The position numbers were made by a program, and so were the translations under genes. DNA of 34,568 nt from an uncultured Bacteroidales bacterium (lineage in GTDB: Bacteria; Planctomycetota; Planctomycetia; Gemmatales; HRBIN36). The notes under the pieces were generated by a model. It made no database searches. It was not told the DNA's origin and saw only the letters and a list, made by a program, of their open reading frames with translations. This document shows positions 4,489-33,600 of this stretch, piece by piece. The DNA is taken from assembly GCA_964410845.1 (NCBI GenBank), contig CAYPJB010000003.1, positions 1-34,568 on the forward strand, in the 5' to 3' direction. Numbering within the stretch: position 1 is the stretch's first letter; each line of letters starts with the position of its first letter.

Positions 4489-4632
4489 CATTTCTGAAAT
4501 GATCATCGCAATAACATGGCGATTGTTCGATTGTTAGTTGTCCCCCTTTTTTATTTCATTCCACGACATCCTCCATTACAATCGCCTGCGTCTGTGAATG
4601 AATCTCATCCCGATTGACGGAGTAACCACTCG

Positions 4633-6036
4633 ATGCAACCCAATAACGTATCACGCCGTGGCTTCCTGGCCGGCTCACTAGGGGCTATTTGTGCCACCGG
4701 CTTGCCTCTCTGGTATGCCAGGGAAATTGTCGCTCTCGAACAGGAACATGCTTTACGGGCTGTCAAGTCAGCCAACGATAAGCTCCAGGTGGGAGTCATC
4801 GGATGCGGCGACCGCGTTCGCAGCGGCGATCTGCTGTTCAGCTTGCTGAGAAACCCCAATGTGCAGGTGGTTGCCTGCTGCGATGTCGATGAAAAGCAGC
4901 TCAATTACACAGCAGGCATCGTAGAAGGCGAGAAGCCTAACAACACCCGTGGCAAGAACCTCGATGGCTATCGTCGTCCCATTCCTTCGGGCGAACAGGA
5001 CCCCAATCGCAAAACCGATGTGAAGGTCAAACGCTTCAAAGACTTCCGCGACCTGGTCGCTCTCAAGGAAGTGGATGCCGTCCTGATCACCACGCCTGAT
5101 CACTGGCATGCCCTGCCTGCCATCGCCGCAGCCAACGCCAAGAAGGATATCTACTGCGAGAAGCCACTTTCGCTGACGATTGCAGAAGGGCGAGCGATGG
5201 CCAACGCAGCTCGCGCGAACAATATCGTCTTCCAGACGGGTAGCCAGCAACGATCCGAACTGGGCAAGTTCCGCCTGGCGTGCGAACTGGTGCAGAATGG
5301 CCGCATCGGCAAACTCAAAAAGGTCGAAACCCGCATCGGCAACCCCGATAAAGGTGGACCATTCAAGACCGAAGCACCCCCCGAAGGACTGGACTGGAAC
5401 TTCTGGCTGGGTCAGACTCCAGACGTTCCATTCATTAAGGAGCGCTGCCACTACCAGTTCCGCTGGTGGTATGCCTACTCAGGTGGCAAGATGACCGACT
5501 GGGGCGCTCACCATAACGACACGGCCCAGTGGGCGCTCGGCATGGATGACAGCGGCCCGGTGAAGGTCACTGCCATCAAGGGTGAAGCCCCCGGCATCGA
5601 GAATGGTTATGATTGCCATCGCGATTTCGAAGTTGTCTTCGAGTATGCCAACGGCGTGCCGGTACACTGCATGGCTGCTGGCGAGAACGGCGTTCACTTC
5701 CAGGGAGAGGATGGCTGGATCTTTGTCAGCCGGGGTTCATTGAAGGCCAGCGATCCGAAGATCATCAGCGAACCGCTCGGCGCTGACGCCAAGCGCCTGC
5801 TGGCTTCGCCAAGCCACATGGGGAACTTCCTGAACAACATCAAGAGCCGAGGCCGCTGCTGTGCCGATGTCGAGATCGGGCATCGCTCCGCGACGGTGTG
5901 CCACTTGGGTAACATCGCCCTCCGTTTTGCCATGGGTAAGCCCCTCACCTGGGATCCCAAGACAGAACGTTTCAGCGATACAGCCATGAACCAGCACGTC
6001 TCCCGTGAGATGCGTGCCCCGTGGAAGCTTTCGTAA
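4633..6036 (+). CDS. Gfo/Idh/MocA family oxidoreductase with Tat-type signal
   Basis: SRRGFLAGSLGAI signal. Rossmann start (LQVGVIGCGDR), the conserved EKP motif (IYCEKPLSL) and a DWGAHH block. Confidence 0.9.
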   Translation: MQPNNVSRRGFLAGSLGAICATGLPLWYAREIVALEQEHALRAVKSANDKLQVGVIGCGDRVRSGDLLFSLLRNPNVQVVACCDVDEKQLNYTAGIVEGEKPNNTRGKNLDGYRRPIPSGEQDPNRKTDVKVKRFKDFRDLVALKEVDAVLITTPDHWHALPAIAAANAKKDIYCEKPLSLTIAEGRAMANAARANNIVFQTGSQQRSELGKFRLACELVQNGRIGKLKKVETRIGNPDKGGPFKTEAPPEGLDWNFWLGQTPDVPFIKERCHYQFRWWYAYSGGKMTDWGAHHNDTAQWALGMDDSGPVKVTAIKGEAPGIENGYDCHRDFEVVFEYANGVPVHCMAAGENGVHFQGEDGWIFVSRGSLKASDPKIISEPLGADAKRLLASPSHMGNFLNNIKSRGRCCADVEIGHRSATVCHLGNIALRFAMGKPLTWDPKTERFSDTAMNQHVSREMRAPWKLS

Positions 6037-6155: not shown

Positions 6156-6920
6156 CTACTTCTTTTGCTGTTCCAGTAGTGCCAGTCGTTCGACGATGCC
6201 CAGATACTGATCCTGCCTGGCTCGCCAGACACCTTGGGCGATAGCCCTGGGGTTAGGCCAGTTGACCAGGCTGAGGTGGTCTCCTTCCCAGATGGTATGC
6301 GGATAGTGATGGCAGGCCGAGGTGATGGAGACAATGCCATCGTTCGGGCCTTCACGAAACATCACCACACCATACGGAATCCACCATTCCGGGCTGAGCC
6401 AGGGGCCACTGTTGCGACCGGCGATGGCATAATAGTCCACGCCGGGGGCATCGATCACCATCGCGTTAAATTCCTGGCAGCGCGGTGTCATCAGGTCGTA
6501 GAAGGCATCATGCGGGATGTGCAGGTACCTGAGCCAGGGCTTCAAATAGCCTTCCAGTTTGCTGACTCCCACATCTGCTGCGGTAGAACCTCGATGCGGT
6601 GTGCCGATCGTGGTCAGGGAGAGGGCTTGTTCCTGCAAGCCCAGGCAACTGATGGCATAGCGGGCATCGAGGCCGCCCATGCTGTGGGCAATGAGGTGGA
6701 CTTTTTCCTGAGGGAACTGCTGCCTGATGGCATCAACCAGTTGAATAGCCCGCTGGGCCACCCCAGCCGTGGGGCTCAAACGCGGTGCAACTACGCGAAT
6801 GCTTTTAGTGCGAAGGTATTCACCGATGCCACGAAAATACGTCATCGCTTCCCAGCCGGCAACGCGCCAGCTATCGAAGCCAAAGAGACCATGCACCAGA
6901 ATCAGCGGATGGCGTAACAA
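6156..6920 (-). CDS. alpha/beta-hydrolase, lipase/esterase family
   Basis: PLILVHGLFGF oxyanion-region motif, nucleophile elbow AHSMGG, and a later NDGIVS motif as in family I bacterial lipases. TTG start. Only 24 nt downstream of the second exbD. Confidence 0.8.
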   Translation of the reverse strand: MLRHPLILVHGLFGFDSWRVAGWEAMTYFRGIGEYLRTKSIRVVAPRLSPTAGVAQRAIQLVDAIRQQFPQEKVHLIAHSMGGLDARYAISCLGLQEQALSLTTIGTPHRGSTAADVGVSKLEGYLKPWLRYLHIPHDAFYDLMTPRCQEFNAMVIDAPGVDYYAIAGRNSGPWLSPEWWIPYGVVMFREGPNDGIVSITSACHHYPHTIWEGDHLSLVNWPNPRAIAQGVWRARQDQYLGIVERLALLEQQKK

Positions 6921-6944
6921 GGGTGTGTACTTTACAAAGACAGG

Positions 6945-7610
6945 CTATTTGCCGGGAGCCTTGGCCGGCGGAGCAGTCTTACTGCCACCACCTTTATTCG
7001 GAGCCTTGGTAAGAATCTTGTCGATTCGGGCCTCGCGGGCTTTATCGACCACGACGGTGTAGCTGCCGAAATCCACCCCGGGGGCGATTTCCAGGATAAG
7101 CTCACTCTTGCCTTCACTCACCAGTCGTTCCAGTTCTCGCACCAGCTTGTCTTCGGTGGCAGCATATTCATTGACTTTGTAAATCGTTTCAGAGCCCTTC
7201 TTCTCCACTTTCACCATAATGTACTTTTTGGCCTGTTCTTCCGTCAACTGGCGGGGCTTGGAGTTCGACTGCTTGTTGCTCGGCAGCGACATCACCTTTT
7301 CCATGACGGACATGGTGGTGGCCAGAATGAAGAAGACCAGCAGCACGAGACATACATCGATCAGCGGATTCATATCGATGTTATTGTCGTCTACTTCGTG
7401 ATGCACTTCTTCATCAATGGCCTGAACCACTTCAGCGACTTCAGCAAAGTGAGGGTGAGCTTCCAGTCTGGTCCACTTGGTATCAGCGGGGCCTTTCACT
7501 TCGTCCGAGGTGGCATACACGCCATCTTTCATCCCTTCCACGATCTGTTCCGTGGAGAGAGGTTGCCCGATCGGTTGAGGTGAACCTTCGTGTCGTAATC
7601 GCCAGGACAT
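6945..7610 (-). CDS. exbD: ExbD/TolR-family biopolymer transport protein with N-terminal GYF_2-like extension
   Basis: ExbD signature DMNPLIDVCLVLLVFFIL after about 75 aa. The N-terminal roughly 60 aa (W...G...LS.EQI.EG...G.....DEV.....KW..LE.HP.F) resemble the GYF_2/DUF4339 pattern. Confidence 0.85.
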   Translation of the reverse strand: MSWRLRHEGSPQPIGQPLSTEQIVEGMKDGVYATSDEVKGPADTKWTRLEAHPHFAEVAEVVQAIDEEVHHEVDDNNIDMNPLIDVCLVLLVFFILATTMSVMEKVMSLPSNKQSNSKPRQLTEEQAKKYIMVKVEKKGSETIYKVNEYAATEDKLVRELERLVSEGKSELILEIAPGVDFGSYTVVVDKAREARIDKILTKAPNKGGGSKTAPPAKAPGK

Positions 7611-7619
7611 GGAGATTCC

Positions 7620-8342
7620 TTATTCTGCAGGCGCGCCGGGCGCGGGAGTTTTCGGGCCGACCTTGGCTACATACTTCAGGTTCATGGATTCCAGCCCCAT
7701 CATCAGCGACTGAACCCGCTCGAACGCAATTGTTGATTCCACTTGCAGCACGATCTTCATTGCGCCGGTTGAACCACGCTCCGCTTTCTCGGCTTTCACC
7801 TTGTCGAGCACTTCCTGCTCGGTGAACTTATCGGTGATGTTCTCTTTGAAGTGATAGACGATCTTGCGCTTTTCGGGATCATCGGGATCAGTGCGGATAC
7901 TGATCACGACATTGCCCTGTCTATCAGCAATCTCCGACATCTTCACAGCAGGAATCTTGAATGGAGCAGCCGTGATGAGGTTCTGAGCCGTCATCATGAA
8001 GAACACGAGAAGCACCATGCTGATGTCGATGAGGGGGATCATATCGACATCTTCGTCTTCCTCTTCTGGTGGCTTGGAAGGACCAAAGTCGATTTCGATG
8101 GGTTCCAGAGCTTCAGCCATGTCCTGAGAGGTAGGCAAGCCGCCAGCACCAAAGTAAGGCTGAAAGAGCGGATGTGCGTCAAGATACTCCCAGGCGGGGG
8201 CACCCGGCGTACGAACGCAGTCTCGCCCGAGGAGTCGGCCTTCCTGTATCCAGTCACAGACGACGGTATAGGGCACGCCACGGTAAACCGTGTTCGGTTG
8301 CACGAGCCAGACGTTGAAGAAGCGGGGAGCGTCAGTGGCCAT
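7620..8342 (-). CDS. exbD: ExbD/TolR-family biopolymer transport protein with N-terminal GYF_2-like extension
   Basis: DMIPLIDISMVLLVFFMM ExbD signature. The N-terminal part (VWLVQPNTVYRGVPYTVVCDWIQEGRLLGRDCVRTPGAPAWEYLDAHPLF) is GYF_2-like. The ORF track starts at TTG 8351; I prefer the in-frame ATG at 8342. Confidence 0.85.
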   Translation of the reverse strand: MATDAPRFFNVWLVQPNTVYRGVPYTVVCDWIQEGRLLGRDCVRTPGAPAWEYLDAHPLFQPYFGAGGLPTSQDMAEALEPIEIDFGPSKPPEEEDEDVDMIPLIDISMVLLVFFMMTAQNLITAAPFKIPAVKMSEIADRQGNVVISIRTDPDDPEKRKIVYHFKENITDKFTEQEVLDKVKAEKAERGSTGAMKIVLQVESTIAFERVQSLMMGLESMNLKYVAKVGPKTPAPGAPAE

Positions 8343-8366
8343 AGTTCTCAATTAAGCGTCGAGAAA

Positions 8367-8463
8367 AGTTGTTGGTTGTTTGTTGTTGGTTGTTGGAAAA
8401 GACACGTCGTTGAGTGCCTCAAAGACGTTTGAACTAACAACCAACAACCAAAAACAAATAACT
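8367..8463. repeat. GTTGTTGG / CCAACAAC inverted-repeat hairpin (gene-less member of the family also seen at 23054-23518)
   Basis: Left arm AGTTGTTGGTTGTTTGTTGTTGGTTGTTGG (8367-8396). Right arm AACTAACAACCAACAACCAAAAACAAATAACT (8432-8463). The arms are largely complementary, and a 35-nt spacer separates them. The element fills the exbB-exbD intercistronic gap. Confidence 0.7.
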
Positions 8464-8470
8464 CAAAATG

Positions 8471-9223
8471 CTACCGAACCACCTGGGCAGCCATCGGTCG
8501 GCCAGTGGGGACAACCGCAGCAACTGCACCTTGCATCGGCGGTGTGGTCTTGGCGGCCTGGGTCAGAAGTAGCAACTTCTGGCCAGCGTTCTTCATCTTG
8601 ATGTCGTACTTGTGAATCCATGCTTTGCAGAGCGTGTGGGTAAACACTAGTGGAATAGCAGTGAGCAGACCAAGCATCGTAGCGAAGAGTGCCAGACCGA
8701 TTTCAGCGGATGCCTGAGCCTGTCCGCCGGTACCCTTCTCGCTGGCTTCACCCAGTGCCGAGAAGGTGCCGATCATCGAGATGATCGTAAAGAGCAGCCC
8801 GACCATCGTCGCAATCTTGGCGAAGGCCAGAATCGTTGGCAGCAGGAAGTTGAGTGCGGGAAGAATTTCGAGTTCGACAGCGTTGGCCATCGACTTGCGC
8901 ATTGCAGCCAGGCCTTCACGCTGCTTTTCGAGGGCAGCTACAAAGAGCGTGCTGGGAATGTATTCGTTCTTGGGCTGGGCCTTGCAGAACTTGAGGGCAC
9001 CATCGATACCTTCCTTGTTCAGGATCTCCTGGAACTTGGGAAGGAACAGATTCAGATCAGTCTTGGCGTTGTAGTTGAGCCAAAGCCGCCAGACGACGAG
9101 CACGGCACCAATGAAAGTCATCGTAAACAGAATGACTGCAAAGAGCGTATCGTGCGTCACAAACTTGATGAAGGCGCTTTCTGCGAAGAGCATCGTACTG
9201 AGCATCGTTGACGTTCCAGGCAC
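8471..9223 (-). CDS. exbB: MotA/TolQ/ExbB proton-channel family protein
   Basis: Three-TM architecture with conserved C-terminal TM blocks (KIATMVGLLFTIISMIGTF; ALFATMLGLLTAIPLVF). GTG start at 9223; an ATG six codons downstream is an alternative. Confidence 0.9.
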   Translation of the reverse strand: MPGTSTMLSTMLFAESAFIKFVTHDTLFAVILFTMTFIGAVLVVWRLWLNYNAKTDLNLFLPKFQEILNKEGIDGALKFCKAQPKNEYIPSTLFVAALEKQREGLAAMRKSMANAVELEILPALNFLLPTILAFAKIATMVGLLFTIISMIGTFSALGEASEKGTGGQAQASAEIGLALFATMLGLLTAIPLVFTHTLCKAWIHKYDIKMKNAGQKLLLLTQAAKTTPPMQGAVAAVVPTGRPMAAQVVR

Positions 9224-9315
9224 GGTGGGACGGAAAACACAGGTGTGAACTATCCTATCTTACTGGTGGCATACTGCAACGCTTTCGTCGATTTTTCTAG
9301 CAATACAATATTCGA

Positions 9316-10452
9316 ATGAGAGCAGCCTATAGTATGCATGAATCGCTGTCGCGGGGCCGTCGCTACCCCGAAGCAGAGCATCCCTACCGGGGAATTTACC
9401 AGCGTGATCGTGATCGTATTCTCCATGCTTCCGCATTTCGCCGGCTGACCGCTAAAACCCAGGTGCTGGTCTGGGGCACCAACGATCATCACCGAACCCG
9501 GCTAACCCATACACTCGAAGTGGCCCAGGTCAGCCGAACCGTGGCCCGCCAACTGGGGCTGCACGAAGACCTCACCGAAGCCATTGCCCTGGCTCATGAT
9601 CTGGGCCATCCACCGTTCGGCCATGCCGGGGAAGCGGCACTCGATGAGTGCCTGAAAGATCATGGCGGATATGAACACAACTGGCAAGGCCTTCGCATCG
9701 TTGAAGAACTGGAACAACGCTACCCAGGCTTTCCAGGGCTGAATCTGACCTGGGAAGTGCGGGAATCGCTGGCCTTTCATAGCAAACGGCCCAACGTGCC
9801 GGAAGTACTACAGTATCGACAAGGCATTCAGCAGCCGACGCTAGAAGCACAGGTGGTCGATGCGGCGGACAGCATCGTCTACGACGTTCACGACCTCGAA
9901 GATGCCTTCGGTGTGAAGCTCATCACCCTGGAGCAAGTGCGACAACTCCAGTTCTGGCGGGAAGCAGAGAAGGCACTGCTTCAGCAGCATGGTTCTATTC
10001 CTGCTGCACGGCTGATCCCCACGGTGCTTCGCTACCTGCTGGCCTGGCGGGAACGGGAGATGCTTCAAACCACCAAGGCACGAATTACTGCTGCCCAGAT
10101 TAACAGCGTTGATGCTGTGAAAGCTTTCAAGGAACCATTAGTAGAGGAGGGGGCAGCACTTCTACCAGTAATTCAGGAACTACGTCGTTTTCTATCAGAA
10201 AAGGTCTATCACCACCCCGACGTGATCAAAATGGCAAGCCGGGGCAAACGTATCGTTCGATCGCTTTACGAGGCTTATACTACTGATCCGAAGCTCATGC
10301 CGGAGTTTCACGCCGAACGGGCCACCCAGATCACGACCGCTCGTGCCGTGGGTGACTATGTAGCGGGCATGACTGACCGATTAGCTGCAATTGAGTATCG
10401 TCAGCTATTCCAACTTCATGAAAAATCGGATATGATAGAAACATCATTGTGA
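9316..10452 (+). CDS. dgt: dGTPase-like HD-domain triphosphohydrolase
   Basis: FQRDRDRILHSxAFRRL-type N-terminus (YQRDRDRILHASAFRRLTAKTQV), RLTHTLEVAQV and HDLGHPPFGH HD motifs, and a C-terminal DYVAGMTD block. Confidence 0.85.
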   Translation: MRAAYSMHESLSRGRRYPEAEHPYRGIYQRDRDRILHASAFRRLTAKTQVLVWGTNDHHRTRLTHTLEVAQVSRTVARQLGLHEDLTEAIALAHDLGHPPFGHAGEAALDECLKDHGGYEHNWQGLRIVEELEQRYPGFPGLNLTWEVRESLAFHSKRPNVPEVLQYRQGIQQPTLEAQVVDAADSIVYDVHDLEDAFGVKLITLEQVRQLQFWREAEKALLQQHGSIPAARLIPTVLRYLLAWREREMLQTTKARITAAQINSVDAVKAFKEPLVEEGAALLPVIQELRRFLSEKVYHHPDVIKMASRGKRIVRSLYEAYTTDPKLMPEFHAERATQITTARAVGDYVAGMTDRLAAIEYRQLFQLHEKSDMIETSL

Positions 10453-23053: not shown

Positions 23054-23085
23054 AGTTGCTGGTTGTTGGTTGCTTGTTGTTAGTT
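23054..23085. repeat. left (GTTG-rich) arm of 32-bp inverted repeat enclosing the four-helix-bundle gene
   Basis: The reverse complement of AGTTGCTGGTTGTTGGTTGCTTGTTGTTAGTT matches 23487-23518 at 28 of 32 positions (hand alignment). Confidence 0.75.
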
Positions 23086-23096
23086 AGGAGAAGAAG

Positions 23097-23528
23097 GTGA
23101 GCAAATTCAGCAGCTATCGTGAATTGAAATGCTGGCAAGATTCAATGACACTGGTTGAATCTGTGTTTCGAATATCTACCAGTTTTCCAAAGGAAGAACA
23201 GTTTGGTTTCGTGTCACAACTGCGACGTTCAGCTCTCTCGGTTCCTTCAAACATAGCAGAAGGACAAGGAAGAGACTCCAGGAAAGAATTCCTGCGATTT
23301 CTTGGAATTGCTCGTGGCTCCCTCCAGGAACTTGAAACCCAACTGATTCTCGCTCATCGATTGGCTTGGCTCGATACTTCAACTTTTGAGAAGTTGAGTT
23401 CCATGATTACGGAAATCAGAAGAATGTTGAACGGTTTATGCAAGTACCTCCGTACCGGCATGACTGGCAAGACCACTACAGTTCTTAACCAACAACAAAC
23501 AACCAACAACGAACAACTATTACCATGA
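23097..23528 (+). CDS. four-helix-bundle protein of the 23S rRNA intervening-sequence protein family
   Basis: YRELKCWQDSMTLVESVF...FPKEEQFGFVSQLRRSALSVPSNIAEGQGR...EFLRFLGIARGSLQELETQL is the hallmark pattern of this family. GTG start preceded by AGGAGAAGAAGG. The stop overlaps the next ATG (ATGA). Confidence 0.9.
   Translation: MSKFSSYRELKCWQDSMTLVESVFRISTSFPKEEQFGFVSQLRRSALSVPSNIAEGQGRDSRKEFLRFLGIARGSLQELETQLILAHRLAWLDTSTFEKLSSMITEIRRMLNGLCKYLRTGMTGKTTTVLNQQQTTNNEQLLP
23487..23518. repeat. right (CAAC-rich) arm of the 32-bp inverted repeat
   Basis: AACCAACAACAAACAACCAACAACGAACAACT. It lies inside the 3' end of the four-helix-bundle ORF (translated as NQQQTTNNEQL) and ends 6 nt before the permease-2 ATG. 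Confidence 0.75.
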
Positions 23529-26096: not shown

Positions 26097-27833
26097 GTGA
26101 ACTATACTAGTATTGAAGCGTGGCGAACTCCGTATTCAGGTACCTATCCTGGTTCATTGGCAGATCTTGTGAGTCAAAACGAACAGAATATAGACTCGAT
26201 TCTCGACAAACCGAGTGGAGACGAGTCGTTATCGCATGATGCGGGATTACAGTATCTTTCACGAGAGAGTTATTCCTCGTTGATGGAAATATGGAAAGCC
26301 CGCACGTCTGATGGTCGTTTGCGTCAGGTCAAGATTCTGAAAGGGCTTTCACAACAACGCACGTTGACCGACAAGGAACTGGAGAAACTCGCCTACCTTA
26401 AGTATTTGAAGCATCCCAGGCTTGCTCCAGTCGACGAGATCCTGTTTGACGAAGGCCGAGTGCTCCTGATCAGTAATCTTCCCGAGATGACCCTGTACGA
26501 TCGCTGGAAACTGCTGAAGACCCAGGGCAAGCCGGGAATCGATCGCAAGGAATTGCTGCAGTACCTGGCGATCATCACCGAATCGCTGGAATACCTGGCA
26601 CGCCACGCCCAGTTATACCACCTGTATCTCAATCCGCATTCGCTCTACTATTTCAGCGGCAGGCTTCGTGTAGCAGACTACAGCCTGCCCCAGCTTGCCT
26701 GGCTCCCTGCCGGGCAGTCGCTCAATCAGTTGGGGCTGCGCTATGCAGCTCCTGAACTCTTTGAAAATGCCTACCATCAGCATTCGGATCAGTACAGCCT
26801 GGCCCTGCTCTACGCGGAAATGCTCACCGGGCAATTGCCCATTCACGGCAATACCCTGAACCAATGGCGGGAACAGCGGCGGAGTATGAAGTTCGATCTG
26901 AAACTGCTGCCCGCTCACGAACACGAAGTGCTCTACAAGGCGCTGGAGTATGAACCCAGCAGACGCTATGCATCATGCACGAGTTTCCTCGAGAACCTGA
27001 TTCAGTCAATTCAGAATTCCAGTGGATACCGCAAGAAATCTCAGGATCCCAAGACAGCAACTGATGCCTCGCTCATGCTGACGGGCGAGACCGTTCCGAT
27101 CATCCCCCAGAATGAAGTAGACATCATCGTCAGGCGATTGATCCAGGTGATCGCGATGAAGACGGTCTACAACAAGGATCAAGGCATCCGCTTTCTGATC
27201 GATGATCAGGGCAAGGTCATCCATCGCTGTGCTGCCTGGCTGCCGGGCGGATTGGCCACCAAGAAGCTGGAAGGCTTTGCACATGAATGGGATGCCAAGC
27301 TTGTACATGTGAACAACCAGACGCACGAATACATCTACAAGATTCGGATGGGGCAAAGCATCTGGCAGAAGCTGGTGGGACGGAAAGCTGAGTTCATCGA
27401 GATTCGCATTCACATGGTTCCGCCCAAGGAAGTGAACGTCAAGCAGACCGAAGTGGAGATCCAACTGGGTTACACCGATGCCAAGCCCGAAAATGAACGA
27501 GACAGGCTCGAAATCGTGGTACCGGCATTGCTGTGCAGCTTAAGAACCTACTTGCTGGCCAAATCCGAAGCACGTGTCGCTGAACGGTATAAGCACCAGA
27601 CCAAGGTCTACCTGTATCCGGTCTATGTCAACAGCATGGGTGATCCGGTGGCAGGGATAACACAAGACATCAGTTATTCGGGAATGCGGGTCTTTTCCAC
27701 TTCCGAGTTCACGGCGAACGACTGCATCGTCCAGATTCATACTGCTGAGTTCGGCTCGCTGATCCTGCCTGCCAAGGTGTTGCGCTGCGAACCACTCTCC
27801 ACCGGGATGTACGACATCGGCCTCAAGTTTTAG
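26097..27833 (+). CDS. protein-kinase-like (predicted pseudokinase) protein with C-terminal PilZ domain
   Basis: The kinase fold is recognisable (VKIL lysine, LKHPRLAPV, AAPE, DQYSLALLYAEMLTG, PSRRY). However, HLYLNPHS replaces HRDLKPxN, DYS replaces DFG, and there is no Gly-rich loop. The C-terminal domain carries both PilZ motifs, RVAER (RxxxR, residues 493-497) and DISYSG (DxSxxG, residues 524-529). GTG start. Confidence 0.75.
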   Translation: MNYTSIEAWRTPYSGTYPGSLADLVSQNEQNIDSILDKPSGDESLSHDAGLQYLSRESYSSLMEIWKARTSDGRLRQVKILKGLSQQRTLTDKELEKLAYLKYLKHPRLAPVDEILFDEGRVLLISNLPEMTLYDRWKLLKTQGKPGIDRKELLQYLAIITESLEYLARHAQLYHLYLNPHSLYYFSGRLRVADYSLPQLAWLPAGQSLNQLGLRYAAPELFENAYHQHSDQYSLALLYAEMLTGQLPIHGNTLNQWREQRRSMKFDLKLLPAHEHEVLYKALEYEPSRRYASCTSFLENLIQSIQNSSGYRKKSQDPKTATDASLMLTGETVPIIPQNEVDIIVRRLIQVIAMKTVYNKDQGIRFLIDDQGKVIHRCAAWLPGGLATKKLEGFAHEWDAKLVHVNNQTHEYIYKIRMGQSIWQKLVGRKAEFIEIRIHMVPPKEVNVKQTEVEIQLGYTDAKPENERDRLEIVVPALLCSLRTYLLAKSEARVAERYKHQTKVYLYPVYVNSMGDPVAGITQDISYSGMRVFSTSEFTANDCIVQIHTAEFGSLILPAKVLRCEPLSTGMYDIGLKF

Positions 27834-27911
27834 CGGATTGAAAACTATAGATACTGGTCGCTGATTGTGTTATCCTAATCGAATCCCACCTACTTCTGAG
27901 CATTGAGAATG

Positions 27912-27959
27912 CAGGACTGAGCACTGACTTCTCAGGACTCAGCACCCAGGACTCCGCAC
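27912..27959 (+). promoter_or_regulatory. three closely spaced copies of CAGGACTNNGCAC immediately upstream of the PSCyt gene
   Basis: CAGGACTGAGCAC (27912-27924), CAGGACTCAGCAC (27933-27945) and CAGGACTCCGCAC (27947-27959). The last copy ends 7 nt before the ATG. Confidence 0.3.
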
Positions 27960-27966
27960 CATCATC

Positions 27967-30789
27967 ATGCTTCGATACCTTCTCCTTTCCGTCTGCATCA
28001 TGGCCTGTTCAGGCATCGCAGCCGCTGAGGATGCCAATTTGGATCTCTTCGAGAAAGCCATTCGTCCGCTGTTTGCCCAGCAATGTGTGAGTTGCCATGG
28101 GCCGCAGAAACAGAAGGGTGGGCTTCGGCTGGATGAACCGCAGTTCATCACCAGGGGAGGCGATTCCGGCAAGATCATCATCGCGGGCTCGCCAGAGAAG
28201 AGCCTTCTCTTTCAAGCGGTCAGTTATAACGACGATGCCCTCAAGATGCCGCCTCGAGGCAAGTTGCTTGCCGAGCAGATGGAAAGCCTGCGCCGCTGGA
28301 TTGCAGGCGGAGCTGCGCTGCCCTCTTCAAACCATACCACCAAGGCCAGTACGGCCAGTTTTCCACTTGCTGAGCGAGTGAAACACTGGTGTTATCAACC
28401 ACTCCAGCAGGCAGCCTTGCCTGACATGAGCAATCCAACGAGCAACCCCATCGATGCGTTTGTTCAGCATGCCTGGAAGAGACAGGGGCTGAAACCTGCC
28501 CAAGAAGTGAACAAGGCTGCCTGGCTCCGTCGGGTGACGTTCGATCTTATTGGTTTGCCCCCCACCGCTGAAGAACTGCTGGCTTTCGAACAGGATACCA
28601 CTGCGGAAGCATATGCCAAAGTGGTTGATCGACTGCTGTCCCGTCCCCAGTACGGCGAACGCTGGGCCAGGCATTGGCTCGACCTGATGCGCTACGCCGA
28701 TACGCTAGGCCACGAATTTGACTTCGATCTCCCCAACGCTTGGCGTTACCGCAACTACCTGATTCGAGCACTGAACGAAGATGTTCCCTATCAGCAGTTC
28801 GTGCGTGAACACCTGGCAGGCGATCTGATTCCAAAGCCTCGCATCAACGCCAGGGAACACTGGAACGAATCGATCCAGGCTACCGGCTTTCTGTGGCTGG
28901 GTGAAGGCAAGCAGGCTCCCGTGGACGTCCGCCAGGAACAGGCGGACCGTATCGATAACCAGATCGATGTCATCGGCAAAGCCTTTCTGGGCCAGACCAT
29001 TGCCTGTGCCCGCTGCCATGATCACAAGTTCGATGCCATTGCCACCAGAGACTACTACGCCCTCTATGGGGTACTGAAGAGCTCCCGGTATCAGCAGGCC
29101 ATCATTGATGATGTTGCCGATCTGGAGCCAACTTACACAGCCCTATCGAAGCTGGTGTCGAGCCAGCAAACGTCTGCGACACAACCACTCAGCCCAAAAG
29201 AGATGGCACCACTGCAGTTGCTGACCAATGCCAGTTCCCAGGGCCCAGCCTGGCAGTTCAGCATCAATCCTGCAGAGATCTGCTCGGTGCATCCCAAGAC
29301 GAAGAAACCGATGCTGCGGACGATCCCTGCTGGCAGTTGGGATAGCGGCATGCTCAGCGATAAACTCGAGGGCGCTCTCCGCACCAAGACGTTCACCATC
29401 GACCAACCCTATCTGCATGTCGGTGTGGCCGGCCATGGCGGGCGCGTTCGACTCGTCGTCGATGGATTCTCCGTCATTCGCGATCCCATCTATGGCAGCC
29501 TGCGTCGCATTGTAAATAATCTGGAGCCTGCCTGGCTCACGTTCAACGTCACGGCGTGGAGAGGTCGTGAAGCCTATCTCGAATTCCTCGATGGTGGTCC
29601 AGCCGATTTGAGCATGTCGCTCGATCATGCTCCGGGCCATGAAGCCTGGCTGCAGGTGCAACAGGCCCACCTCAGCAAGGACGCCAAACCTCAGACTAAA
29701 TTATCATCGCCCAAGACGGGAGATGTCAATGATCCGAAGTGGAAAACCTTCCTTGAACAAAAGCAATCTCTCGAAGCCAGGCTCCAACCTGCCCGGTACG
29801 CTCTCGCCACCGCCGAAGGCAGCGGCAGCGACGAACAGGTCTTCATCCGAGGCAACCACCGTTTGCCGGGCGAACGTGTGCCACGTGGGCTCTCCACCAT
29901 CTTTTGTGGCACAGCTCCGCTGCCCGTTGAAACAGGTTCAGGTCGGCTGGCTCTTGCAGAACGGCTGACCAATCCCGAACTCAACCCCCTTCTCGTTCGT
30001 GTCATCGTCAATCGCTTGTGGAAGCATCATTTTGGCGAAGGATTGGTGCGAACCGTGGACGATTTCGGGCACATGGGCGAAGCTCCATCGCATCCAGAAT
30101 TGCTCGATTTCCTCTGCAACCAGTTCATCACTGACGGCTGGTCGCTCAAGAAGCTCCATCGACTGATGGTCTTGAGCAGCACCTATCGCCTGGGCAACAG
30201 CATCGACGATCCAGCAAAGGATCCCCAGCGACGCTGGCTGACGCACCTGCCCCTTCGCCGTCTGGAAGCAGAAGCCTGGCGTGATTCCATGCTTGCCATC
30301 GCAGGCAAGCTCCGCACCGAGGGAGCGGACGCCGGTGTAATGCCACACCTGACCAGCAGCATGCAGGGACGAGGCAAGCCCGGCGTCAGTGGCCCACTCG
30401 ATGGAAATGGCTACCGTAGCATCTATCTCAGTGTTCGTCGCAACTTTCTTCCTTCGTGGGCAACCGCTTTCGATTTCCCCACACCATTCACTGCCATTGG
30501 AAAGCGATCCGTTTCGAATACGCCTGCCCAGGGTCTTACCCTCATGAACGATCCCCTGGTGCTTCATCTGGCTGAAGTCTGGGCTGAGAACCTGCTGAAG
30601 CAGAACCTCGATACCAACCAGCGACTGCACAGAATGTACATGCAGGCATTCTGTCGACAGCCTGTCAGCGATGAACTGCAGACGATGCAGCGCTATCTCG
30701 CAGAACATCCTGCCGGGAACGAGAAGAAGGCATGGACGGATATCGCCCATGCCCTCTTCAGCAGCAAAGAGTTTATTCTGATACCCTGA
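27967..30789 (+). CDS. PSCyt1 / DUF1549 / DUF1553 domain protein (planctomycete cytochrome-c-like)
   Basis: Signal peptide. CVSCHGPQKQKGGLRLD haem-binding-like motif (PSCyt1). DUF1549 block (RRVTFDLIGLPPTAEEL). CARCHDHKFD. DUF1553 C-terminal block (FDFP...SNTPAQGLTLMNDP). Confidence 0.9.
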   Translation: MLRYLLLSVCIMACSGIAAAEDANLDLFEKAIRPLFAQQCVSCHGPQKQKGGLRLDEPQFITRGGDSGKIIIAGSPEKSLLFQAVSYNDDALKMPPRGKLLAEQMESLRRWIAGGAALPSSNHTTKASTASFPLAERVKHWCYQPLQQAALPDMSNPTSNPIDAFVQHAWKRQGLKPAQEVNKAAWLRRVTFDLIGLPPTAEELLAFEQDTTAEAYAKVVDRLLSRPQYGERWARHWLDLMRYADTLGHEFDFDLPNAWRYRNYLIRALNEDVPYQQFVREHLAGDLIPKPRINAREHWNESIQATGFLWLGEGKQAPVDVRQEQADRIDNQIDVIGKAFLGQTIACARCHDHKFDAIATRDYYALYGVLKSSRYQQAIIDDVADLEPTYTALSKLVSSQQTSATQPLSPKEMAPLQLLTNASSQGPAWQFSINPAEICSVHPKTKKPMLRTIPAGSWDSGMLSDKLEGALRTKTFTIDQPYLHVGVAGHGGRVRLVVDGFSVIRDPIYGSLRRIVNNLEPAWLTFNVTAWRGREAYLEFLDGGPADLSMSLDHAPGHEAWLQVQQAHLSKDAKPQTKLSSPKTGDVNDPKWKTFLEQKQSLEARLQPARYALATAEGSGSDEQVFIRGNHRLPGERVPRGLSTIFCGTAPLPVETGSGRLALAERLTNPELNPLLVRVIVNRLWKHHFGEGLVRTVDDFGHMGEAPSHPELLDFLCNQFITDGWSLKKLHRLMVLSSTYRLGNSIDDPAKDPQRRWLTHLPLRRLEAEAWRDSMLAIAGKLRTEGADAGVMPHLTSSMQGRGKPGVSGPLDGNGYRSIYLSVRRNFLPSWATAFDFPTPFTAIGKRSVSNTPAQGLTLMNDPLVLHLAEVWAENLLKQNLDTNQRLHRMYMQAFCRQPVSDELQTMQRYLAEHPAGNEKKAWTDIAHALFSSKEFILIP

Positions 30790-33300: not shown

Positions 33301-33307
33301 TTGAAAG

Positions 33308-33393
33308 TGGCGCTGGTGGGACTTGAACCCACACGGAGCTTACGCTCCAAGGGATTTTAAATCCCTTGTGTCTGCCGATTCCACCACAGCGCC
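33308..33393 (-). tRNA. tRNA-Leu (anticodon UAA), class II with long variable arm
   Basis: Hand-folded cloverleaf. Acceptor GGCGCTG/CAGCGCC. D stem GTG/CAC with an 11-nt loop. Anticodon stem AGGGA/TCCCT with loop TTTAAAA (anticodon TAA). Variable arm GGAGC-GTAA-GCTCC. T arm GTGGG-TTCAAGT-CCCAC. Discriminator A. CCA is not encoded. Confidence 0.9.
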
Positions 33394-33503: not shown

Positions 33504-33533
33504 AGTTGTTGGTTACTGATTGTTTGTTGTCGG
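33504..33533. repeat. solo GTTG-rich arm related to the 8367 and 23054 repeat arms
   Basis: AGTTGTTGGTTACTGATTGTTTGTTGTCGG resembles the left arms at 8367-8396 and 23054-23085. I found no complementary CAAC-rich partner nearby. Confidence 0.35.
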
Positions 33534-33600
33534 TAAAGTGCTGTAAGATATCCCTTTTCCCATCCCCTACTCGCTGCTCCCCATTCCCTCACTCCCTCGT

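Follow-up and report, generated by a model that had tools for sequence, protein, structure and literature searches.

A gene-less hairpin of inverted heptamer arrays in the exbB-exbD gap of a Gemmatales operon and its kinship with a four-helix-bundle gene cassette

The window considered here is the whole 34,568-nt stretch of contig CAYPJB010000003.1 (assembly GCA_964410845.1), which comes from an uncultured bacterium of the Gemmatales (Planctomycetota) and carries on its minus strand an exbB-exbD-exbD operon. The spacer between exbB and the first exbD holds a long hairpin whose two arms are inverted arrays of 7-nt units. Arrays of the same unit, or word, also surround a gene elsewhere in the window that belongs to the PF05635 family ("23S rRNA intervening sequence protein", a four-helix bundle), and this gene together with its arms is referred to below as the cassette. 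The features of the hairpin locus are the following.

8471..9205, minus strand: exbB, MotA/ExbB family, 244 amino acids (aa) as called (PF01618, E 3.5e-14); the element begins just 3' of its stop codon
8343..8470, minus strand: intercistronic spacer of the exbB-exbD-exbD operon, 128 nt, with the whole element inside
8432..8463, minus strand: 5' arm on the mRNA strand, AGUUAUUUGUUUUUGGUUGUUGGUUGUUAGUU, with 4-5 GUUGUUN-type heptamers, starting 7 nt past the exbB stop
8397..8431, minus strand: loop of 35 nt, with a small inner stem (8404-8414 with 8418-8428) in the predicted fold
8367..8396, minus strand: 3' arm on the mRNA strand, CCAACAACCAACAACAAACAACCAACAACU, with four heptamers, containing a 24-mer in common with a cassette arm
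8343..8366, minus strand: spacer retained ahead of exbD, UUUCUCGACGCUUAAUUGAGAACU, including a small local stem; its homologue in the sister species is the 29 nt downstream of the variable segment
7620..8342, minus strand: exbD paralogue 1, 240 aa (PF02472), downstream of the element
6945-7610, minus strand: second exbD

The start codon of exbD is the ATG at 8342 (an alternative TTG lies at 8351), and the hairpin ends 24 nt upstream of this ATG, within a gap that gene calls place at the same 128 nt in 10 independent assemblies. A repeat search pairs the arms over 28 nt at 86% complementarity, or over 22 nt at 91%, and Tandem Repeats Finder assigns both of them a period of 7, with 4.1 copies at 8367-8396 and 3.4 copies in the other arm, which identifies the arms as arrays of GTTGTTN heptamers and as more than GTTG/CAAC low complexity. 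On the mRNA strand they read (GUUAUUU)(GUUUUUG)(GUUGUUG)(GUUGUUA)... and ...(CAACAAC)(CAACAAC)(AAACAAC)(CAACAAC). The predicted fold of this (minus) strand reaches -40.0 kcal/mol, as against -25.1 +/- 3.2 for 200 dinucleotide shuffles (z -4.7; 0/200 as good), and that of the plus strand reaches -42.8 kcal/mol (z -5.0). The 35-nt loop holds no open reading frame (ORF), and neither arm contains a GGG run. Compared with Rfam, the hairpin returned only sub-threshold microRNA-precursor look-alikes of the kind that generic long hairpins give; across the window a tRNA was the sole Rfam match, and the hairpin lies outside any 23S rRNA helix. As a separate feature of the operon, both ExbD paralogues (6945-8342) show N-terminal extensions of ~75-95 residues ahead of the PF02472 match.

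Orthologous exbB-exbD gaps were obtained through ExbD homologues, and a scan of metagenome contigs with ExbD added one close relative, L150. They compare as follows.

This species, ten independent assemblies: gap of 128 nt with the same hairpin, one assembly having a single-nucleotide polymorphism (SNP)
Sister species 1 (L011/L014) and sister species 2 (L150): gap of 170-173 nt with an orthologous GTTGTTN hairpin in the same place
L015, L016, L029, L023, L020 and L021: gaps of 27, 38, 63, 65, 68 and 145 nt, respectively, all without heptamer arrays, two with small GC-rich stems

The flanks of the two sister species are ~90% identical to each other and ~81% identical to this window, and their arms and right-hand flank align column by column with the window hairpin. 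Both terminal inverted repeats and presence or absence at orthologous sites were found, and the simplest history for these alignments would be one insertion directly 3' of the exbB stop in an ancestor of the three Gemmatales species. In two of the more distant gaps (L020:2433-2500 and L029:2438-2500), short GC-rich stem-loops (GAGGCATCC...GGATGCCTC and GGCGAGGCTC...GAGCCTCGC, respectively) stand in place of the heptamer hairpin, and some structure at the exbB-exbD junction may be generally favored.

Two alleles occupy this site in sister species 1. Allele A (L011, from the Joint Genome Institute (JGI), and L014, an independent Logan assembly) is a 144-nt GTTGTTG/GTTCTTG hairpin, whereas allele B (L012 and L013, two other JGI samples) is an 87-nt GTTGAGA/TCTCAAC hairpin, nearly perfect over 38 bp, with a 4-nt loop and a fold of -60.5 kcal/mol; each is present in two independent assemblies. 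The difference between them (L011:2328-2471 vs L012:2385-2471) runs from exactly past the exbB TAG stop to 29 nt before the exbD ATG, and it is bordered by flanks that are identical over 741/741 nt of exbB and 1395/1395 nt of exbD1-exbD2, with 1 mismatch in the 2327 nt upstream. Since a swap of word between identical flanks is beyond the reach of point mutation, the aligned alleles indicate that the whole hairpin has been exchanged in place. The GTTGTTN alleles terminate in ...TTCTCTCAAC, a single unit of the word found in the other allele; it may be left over from an older hairpin or may have served as microhomology in the exchange. No GTTGAGA arrays were found in the window or in the other fetched loci. 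Further downstream in this species, a GC-rich palindromic repeat (CCCCTCTCCCTCCCGGGGAGAGGGG...GGGGTGAGGGG) lies on both sides of the lipase gene that follows exbD2 (L011:3919-3959 and 4777-4817; also in L012) and represents a second family, similar to repetitive extragenic palindromic (REP) sequences; an IS110-family transposase gene is nearby in L012 and absent from L011.

The comparison of the three species also indicates which parts of the hairpin are maintained. Between this species and its sisters, identity at four-fold-degenerate sites is down to 40-58%, close to saturation, and despite this the word, unit number and pairing of the arrays are all kept. L011 has GTTCTTG/CAAGAAC as its outermost stem unit and L150 has GTTGTTG/CAACAAC, a two-sided compensatory change, and the two arm SNPs seen within this species, at 8392 (in one RNA-library contig) and 8396 (in L010), are both C-to-U on the mRNA strand and leave G.U pairs. 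A strain variant shows seven changes among the 66 gap positions outside the arms and none among the 62 within them; the changes in the loop are at 8409, 8414 and 8417, together with an A inserted after 8420. Loop length is 35-36 nt in all three species, and the loops of this species and its sisters are unalignable, alignments in both orientations being no better than shuffles; on this ground an inversion of the loop between this hairpin and the sister hairpins was considered and rejected. To judge from these alignments, the stem looks like the constrained part and the loop looks free to vary.

The same word recurs within the window. The motif GTTGTTNGTTGTT, allowing up to 2 mismatches, has 20 matches vs 1.9 expected, a number reached by 0/100 shuffles, and 14/20 fall in five arms at three intergenic loci. 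Besides the hairpin, these loci comprise the following features.

23054..23089, plus strand: left arm of the gene-bearing twin, GTTGCTG GTTGTTG GTTGCTT GTTGTTA ...; 36 nt, 86% complementary to the right arm
23097..23528, plus strand: PF05635 "23S rRNA intervening sequence protein"/four-helix-bundle gene, 143 aa (E 6.1e-41)
23483..23518, plus strand: cassette right arm, including AACCAACAACAAACAACCAACAAC, which is identical in a hairpin arm and in the cassette of a sister species
33504..33545, plus strand: unpaired arm of the same family, with tRNA-Leu (33307-33393, minus strand) on one side and miaA (33601, plus strand) on the other

The cassette left arm starts 2 nt past the stop codon of an upstream FtsX permease gene, and the PF05635 ORF runs on through its own right arm (window 23483-23528, encoding ...NQQQTTNNEQLLP) to stop in the ATGA that opens the next FtsX gene. 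Positions 8368-8391 of the hairpin are exactly complementary over 24 nt to 23487-23510 of the cassette, and the two loci have the word and its arrangement in common, which need not amount to a recent common copy. The lone arm at 33504-33545 matches 23477-23518 over 42 nt at 81%, and because this match continues past the array into the last PF05635 codons, the arm is probably the remnant of a decayed minus-strand cassette's end. Additionally, a period-7/14 array of a different heptamer word (CTCAGGA CTCAGCA CCCAGGA CTCCGCA CC) lies at 27931-27960, 7 nt upstream of the ATG at 27967, with no inverted partner seen in 27800-28000. A putative decayed arm at 4520-4542 was judged unconvincing.

Further loci of this genome were sought by matching metagenome contigs from eight DNA runs to the hairpin. 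The arm 8432-8463 or 8375-8394 recurs, at 1-3 mismatches, in at least three further contexts (O1, O2 and O3), and since the depths of their contigs follow those of this genome in the eight runs (e.g., 30 vs 29.6; 15.7 vs 19.9, 19.4; 8.15 vs 8.07, 7.6), they are very probably additional loci of the same genome. Within the 30-nt flanks available, O1 and O3 have an ATG within ~15 nt downstream of the arm, as the cassette does, and the inner flank of O3 (GGTTAAGATGGCAGG) resembles the end of the cassette gene.

The cassette is itself an insert that comes and goes. In L166-L171, which have no insert at the FtsX-FtsX junction, the stop and start codons overlap by one base (TAATG or TGATG), whereas L174 (a sister genome from the same metagenome as L011) and L173 carry an orthologous cassette at this junction, with the same kind of arms and a protein of equal length at 84% aa identity. 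Given the one-base overlap in the cassette-less relatives, the insert supplies the upstream FtsX gene with a new stop codon and keeps a coupled junction downstream. The flanks of L166 are 90% identical to those of L174, vs only 81% for the flanks of this genome; that a cassette-less relative is the closer one indicates that the cassette was cleanly lost in one lineage or moved by recombination.

Much of what an earlier note had read from the letters of this DNA agrees with these results. The gap of 128 nt and the sequences, coordinates and 35-nt separation of the arms (8367-8396 and 8432-8463) are as first given, and the kinship that it claimed with the cassette arms is borne out by the common heptamer word, the 24-nt exact complement, the insertion of both elements 3' of a stop codon in an operon and the presence or absence of both among relatives. 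A third, unpaired arm of the family, that at 33504-33545, had escaped it. Two of the checks that it proposed gave clear outcomes: no shuffle folded as well as either strand, and the comparison of orthologous gaps set two sister species with the hairpin against six other lineages without it. A random spread of low-complexity sequence, the outcome that it had named as contrary to its proposal, is ruled out in the window by the excess of motif matches and their concentration in intergenic arms.

Arrays of this word extend well beyond the Gemmatales. When one genome per species was scanned for four GTTGTTN-like units in phase, at least 120 stretches were returned, none of those listed being from this genome and all being used for class statistics only; those listed come from Cyanobacteria, Bacteroidota, Acidobacteriota, Planctomycetota (including a Gemmata metagenome-assembled genome (MAG)) and others, and the counts in this paragraph hold among the matches listed. 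Only 16% of the 192-196 arrays lie inside long ORFs vs 73% of random segments, and the commonest unit number is four (192 arrays). Pairs are G-first in 33 cases vs C-first in 1, their spacers are mostly 3-125 nt, and many fill their gap, beginning within a few bases of a stop codon and ending just short of the following start. A single pair has a PF05635 gene inside, its word being AGTTTTT, and the PF05635 genes that lie beside arrays in other stretches go with other words. Gene-less pairs exceed gene-holding pairs by ~30 to 1, so that the basic unit would seem to be the hairpin, occupied by a gene only now and then. Regarding polarity, a "same orientation relative to transcription" of hairpin and cassette was discarded as trivial, since a G-first inverted repeat is G-first on both strands, and G-first vs C-first is the meaningful statistic.

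Several individual stretches in this set are worth describing. The Gemmata sp. MAG has a hairpin of 4+4 GTTATTG/GTTGTTG units with a 38-nt loop (L112:7422-7515), which extends from a stop codon to 5 nt before the next ATG and is a close analogue from the Gemmataceae. Arrays of GTTGTTA units (e.g., in L119, L135, L144 and L074) have a TAG every 7 nt and hence stops in all three frames, and the opposite arm has TAA in the same way. Many of the listed arrays start right after "TA", and inserts of this kind can thus supply the stop codon of the upstream gene.

As for expression of the exbB-exbD hairpin, contigs of three metatranscriptome-labelled runs cross exbB, the hairpin and exbD (8243-9219, 8270-9221 and 8237-8561), and a terminator scan found no terminator-like site in 6800-9500, the hairpin lacking the combination of GC-rich stem and U-run that defines intrinsic terminators. 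Since RNA-library contigs run across it, the hairpin is part of the operon transcript and no strong terminator, and because it is transcribed through, an RNA-level role is plausible. Within the exbB-exbD mRNA, it would form a stem of roughly 25 or more bp that could be recognized by RNase III or could block 3' exonucleases, by analogy with the heptamer stem of the Coxiella 23S rRNA intervening sequence (IVS) and with Correia elements (see below), and either effect would uncouple the stability and expression of exbB from those of exbD. On the strength of this analogy, a function of the hairpin as a double-stranded RNA (dsRNA) processing or stability element between exbB and exbD is proposed tentatively, as an assignment that may well prove wrong.

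The family to which the hairpin belongs can be described as two inverted arrays of ~four 7-nt units, with the GTTGTTN arm first and the N'AACAAC arm second on either strand, that insert directly 3' of stop codons in the gaps between co-transcribed genes. Because the same word surrounds a PF05635 gene that is itself present or absent at its site, hairpin and cassette are read as one family, of which they would be the cargo-less and cargo-bearing forms. The data show the structure of the hairpin, its family membership, its insertion and replacement in place, a word that is retained while the loop is free and read-through in RNA-labelled libraries, whereas RNA processing or stability, the way in which the element moves or is exchanged and any role of the four-helix-bundle protein are inferred. 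Taken as a whole, the hairpin is probably a gene-less heptamer-array element that was inserted, has been retained, is exchangeable and is transcribed in the operon, with dsRNA processing or stability as its most likely effect; for the structural and evolutionary part of this description alone, our confidence is clearly higher.

Several observations weigh against this reading. The RNA evidence consists of assembled contigs, which are blind to transcript ends and possibly include DNA carry-over; no processing site, RNase III dependence or effect on exbB or exbD levels has been observed; and the fold gives the mRNA strand no advantage over the opposite strand, a DNA-level role being equally compatible with it. 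No mobility enzyme for the hairpin and no within-species empty allele of it were found. The junctions of hairpin and cassette show no clear target-site duplication relative to empty sites (the empty exbBD sites being too diverged for a base-level junction), and the replacement in sister species 1 could be explained without any element-specific mechanism, by ordinary homologous recombination with another allele. One of the three loci in the contig (33504) is unpaired, as are, by the criterion used, ~two thirds of the arrays among the matches listed in other genomes. Finally, arm identity between the species (29-30 of 31-33) is barely above that of unrelated same-word arrays (median 26, maximum 29), and the 24-mer common to hairpin and cassette also occurs in 6/120 unrelated array-bearing stretches of other phyla among the matches listed, for which reasons an initial statement that arms 90-97% identical are a strongly conserved sequence was toned down. 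With arm identity so near the level of unrelated arrays, identity alone is no proof that hairpin and cassette arms descend from a common copy; what is maintained is the word and the structure, exact identity being weak evidence of recent common descent.

Other explanations of the hairpin must be weighed against the same evidence. The earlier note had suggested an empty or collapsed version of the four-helix-bundle module, of which the kinship with the module stands, whereas the loop has no detectable gene remnant. Origin by interior deletion of a PF05635 cassette would account for the common word, for the inner arm end GTTGTTAGT and for the placement past a stop codon, all of which match the cassette, and the lone arm at 33504, which retains a stretch like the last codons of the gene, indicates that cassettes do decay in this genome. 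The sole hint of a gene in the loop is that of L011, which opens with GAAGACAGGATG where cassettes have GAGAAGAAGGTG or GGAGGAAAAGTG (ribosome-binding site and start codon); additionally, ACAG-NN-CTT precedes the right arm in the cassette, the lone arm and O1, with a weak counterpart in the hairpin. However, loop and gene show no significant similarity in either orientation, the 35-36-nt loops of all three species would put any collapse before their split, where it is untraceable, the GTTGAGA replacement hairpin with its 4-nt loop bears no trace of cargo, and gene-less pairs are in ~30 to 1 excess among the listed matches. Since neutral sites are saturated between the species that share the hairpin, a gene remnant could not have survived; we regard collapse as unlikely, if deserving of real weight. 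The further link that the earlier note drew between the two loci, their location in membrane-transport operons, proved coincidental, as related hairpins occupy intercistronic gaps of all kinds.

The heptamers could instead be docking sites on DNA or RNA for an oligomeric protein, be it the four-helix-bundle pentamer of the cassette or a nucleoid or regulatory protein, the hairpin form being secondary. PF05635 is related to bAvd, a nucleic-acid-binding pentamer, and word and unit number (most often four, 4-5 here) are kept more than exact sequence. Every locus of this genome has one and the same word, whereas other words go with PF05635 cassettes elsewhere; the polarity of the listed pairs, strictly convergent at 33:1, is what head-to-head sites would give; and heptanucleotide arrays of Geobacter have been annotated as putative global-regulator sites (PMC2700814). 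Nevertheless, the compensatory change and the SNPs that preserve G.U pairs indicate that pairing as such matters, and the tolerance of the sister-species site for a wholly different word between identical flanks is hard to reconcile with a locus-specific operator, so that this explanation carries only a modest share of our belief. A stem-loop that evolved locally in exbBD as an attenuator, terminator or translational-coupling device, unrelated to the cassette and sharing its word by low-complexity convergence, appears improbable. ExbB is in excess over ExbD in their complex, and a higher output of ExbB than of ExbD would fit such a device, as would the small GC-rich stem-loops at the same place in L020 and L029 and the occurrence of the exact 24-mer in unrelated phyla. 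Against it, the terminator scan was negative and RNA-library contigs continue across the hairpin; the whole segment was swapped for another word between identical flanks, beyond point mutation; five or more other loci in this genome have the same word, in one case around a gene; and polarity, unit number and stop-adjacent placement are common to hairpins of unrelated operons and phyla. The arms are admittedly GT/AC-rich and simple, and hairpins can confuse assemblers, yet chance low-complexity sequence or an assembly artefact is refuted for practical purposes by the identical sequence in 10 independent assemblies and 8 further runs, by a fold with z about -5 that no shuffle equals, by the 20 motif matches vs 1.9 expected and by the orthologous hairpin in two other species.

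Set beside these alternatives, the reading of the hairpin as a gene-less member of an exchangeable element family can be extended into a wider and speculative scheme, which as a whole is unlikely though worth stating. According to it, heptamer-array hairpins would be the primary exchangeable unit and PF05635 proteins their word-specific partners; a gene-bearing copy such as that at 23054-23518 would provide a protein that recognizes arrays of its own word; gene-less copies, the exbB-exbD hairpin among them, would be non-autonomous, in the manner of REPs and REP-associated tyrosine transposases (RAYTs), and a resident hairpin could be overwritten in place; 23S rRNA IVSs would be those copies that had inserted into rRNA; and the unexplained intergenic heptamer repeats of Xanthomonas, cyanobacteria and Geobacter would be further instances of it. 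Such hairpins sit in operons of many phyla and may set the relative expression of neighboring genes. The replacement of a hairpin by one of a different word between base-identical flanks and the retention of a repeat word over a divergence that saturates neutral sites are newly on record here, and three questions can now be tested: whether RNase III cuts these hairpins in mRNAs, whether the four-helix-bundle protein binds its own word and how a hairpin is overwritten.

Intergenic heptamer repeats were first reported in 1990, and the short tandemly repeated repetitive (STRR) heptamers are the heptamer repeats of cyanobacteria. In Xanthomonas and Nostoc, inverted heptamer arrays (GGGAATC / GGGGAYT) preferably have four units and lie outside genes, for the most part with co-oriented neighbors and a stop codon no more than ~50 bp away (Rehm et al., 2015; PMC4692102). 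They form ~70 convergent pairs per Xanthomonas genome and are transcribed, with function unknown and a G-quadruplex (G4) explanation offered (PMC4692102). The exbB-exbD hairpin resembles them in its ~four 7-nt units, its convergent arrays and its intergenic position between co-oriented ORFs near a stop, and the statistics of the 120 stretches are the same; unlike them, the GTTGTTN word has no G-tracts, so that the G-quadruplex explanation is inapplicable and the likeness is one of architectural class only, outside the G4 subclass. In Geobacter metallireducens, heptanucleotide arrays of four and five units were described as putative regulator sites (Aklujkar et al., 2009; PMC2700814). The present case differs from the Xanthomonas, Nostoc and Geobacter repeats in having an associated gene family and an in-place replacement, neither of which is mentioned in the papers on them, and it lies in another phylum, the Planctomycetota.

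Correia elements (CREE/NEMIS) of Neisseria form a hairpin that binds RNase III, is cut or protected and alters the expression of neighboring genes (PMC2649163). As MITEs (transposable elements of miniature size with inverted repeats), they are like the hairpin in being short, with inverted ends, located between genes, present or absent at their sites and part of mRNA; unlike it, they share a conserved core, duplicate a TA target and are almost identical from copy to copy, whereas the copies described here share arms and word only, with unrelated loops and interiors. REPs and bacterial interspersed mosaic elements (BIMEs) are extragenic imperfect palindromes, often past stop codons in operons, where they act as barriers to 3' exonucleases and so increase the expression of the cistron upstream. 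In the REP/RAYT system, a single protein-coding relative has been proposed to mobilize many gene-less copies, the REPs themselves being GC-rich palindromes of 20-40 nt. The present family differs from it in consisting of heptamer arrays and in having as candidate protein partner a four-helix bundle with no known nuclease fold; no RAYT gene was seen in the 34.6-kb contig.

The only paper returned by a full-text search for work that links heptamers and inverted repeats to four-helix-bundle or IVS genes was a study of Coxiella burnetii, in which the S23p IVS has a 28-bp terminal stem with variable-number heptamers and is cut there by RNase III (Warrier et al., 2016; PMC4990558). In that system the RNA was judged more relevant than the S23p protein, whose ORF is decaying in some strains, and IVSs were first reported around 1990 (PMC4990558). 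Like the 23S rRNA IVSs of Coxiella and Leptospira, the exbB-exbD hairpin has terminal inverted repeats, a ~28-bp stem and heptamers; unlike them, it lies in an mRNA between protein genes and without a PF05635 ORF, which is found only in its twin at 23097-23528. Since a single word makes up the gene-less hairpin as well as the arms around an IVS-type gene, the locus ties together, in one genome, intergenic heptamer repeats and 23S rRNA IVSs, two phenomena that are both old and unexplained.

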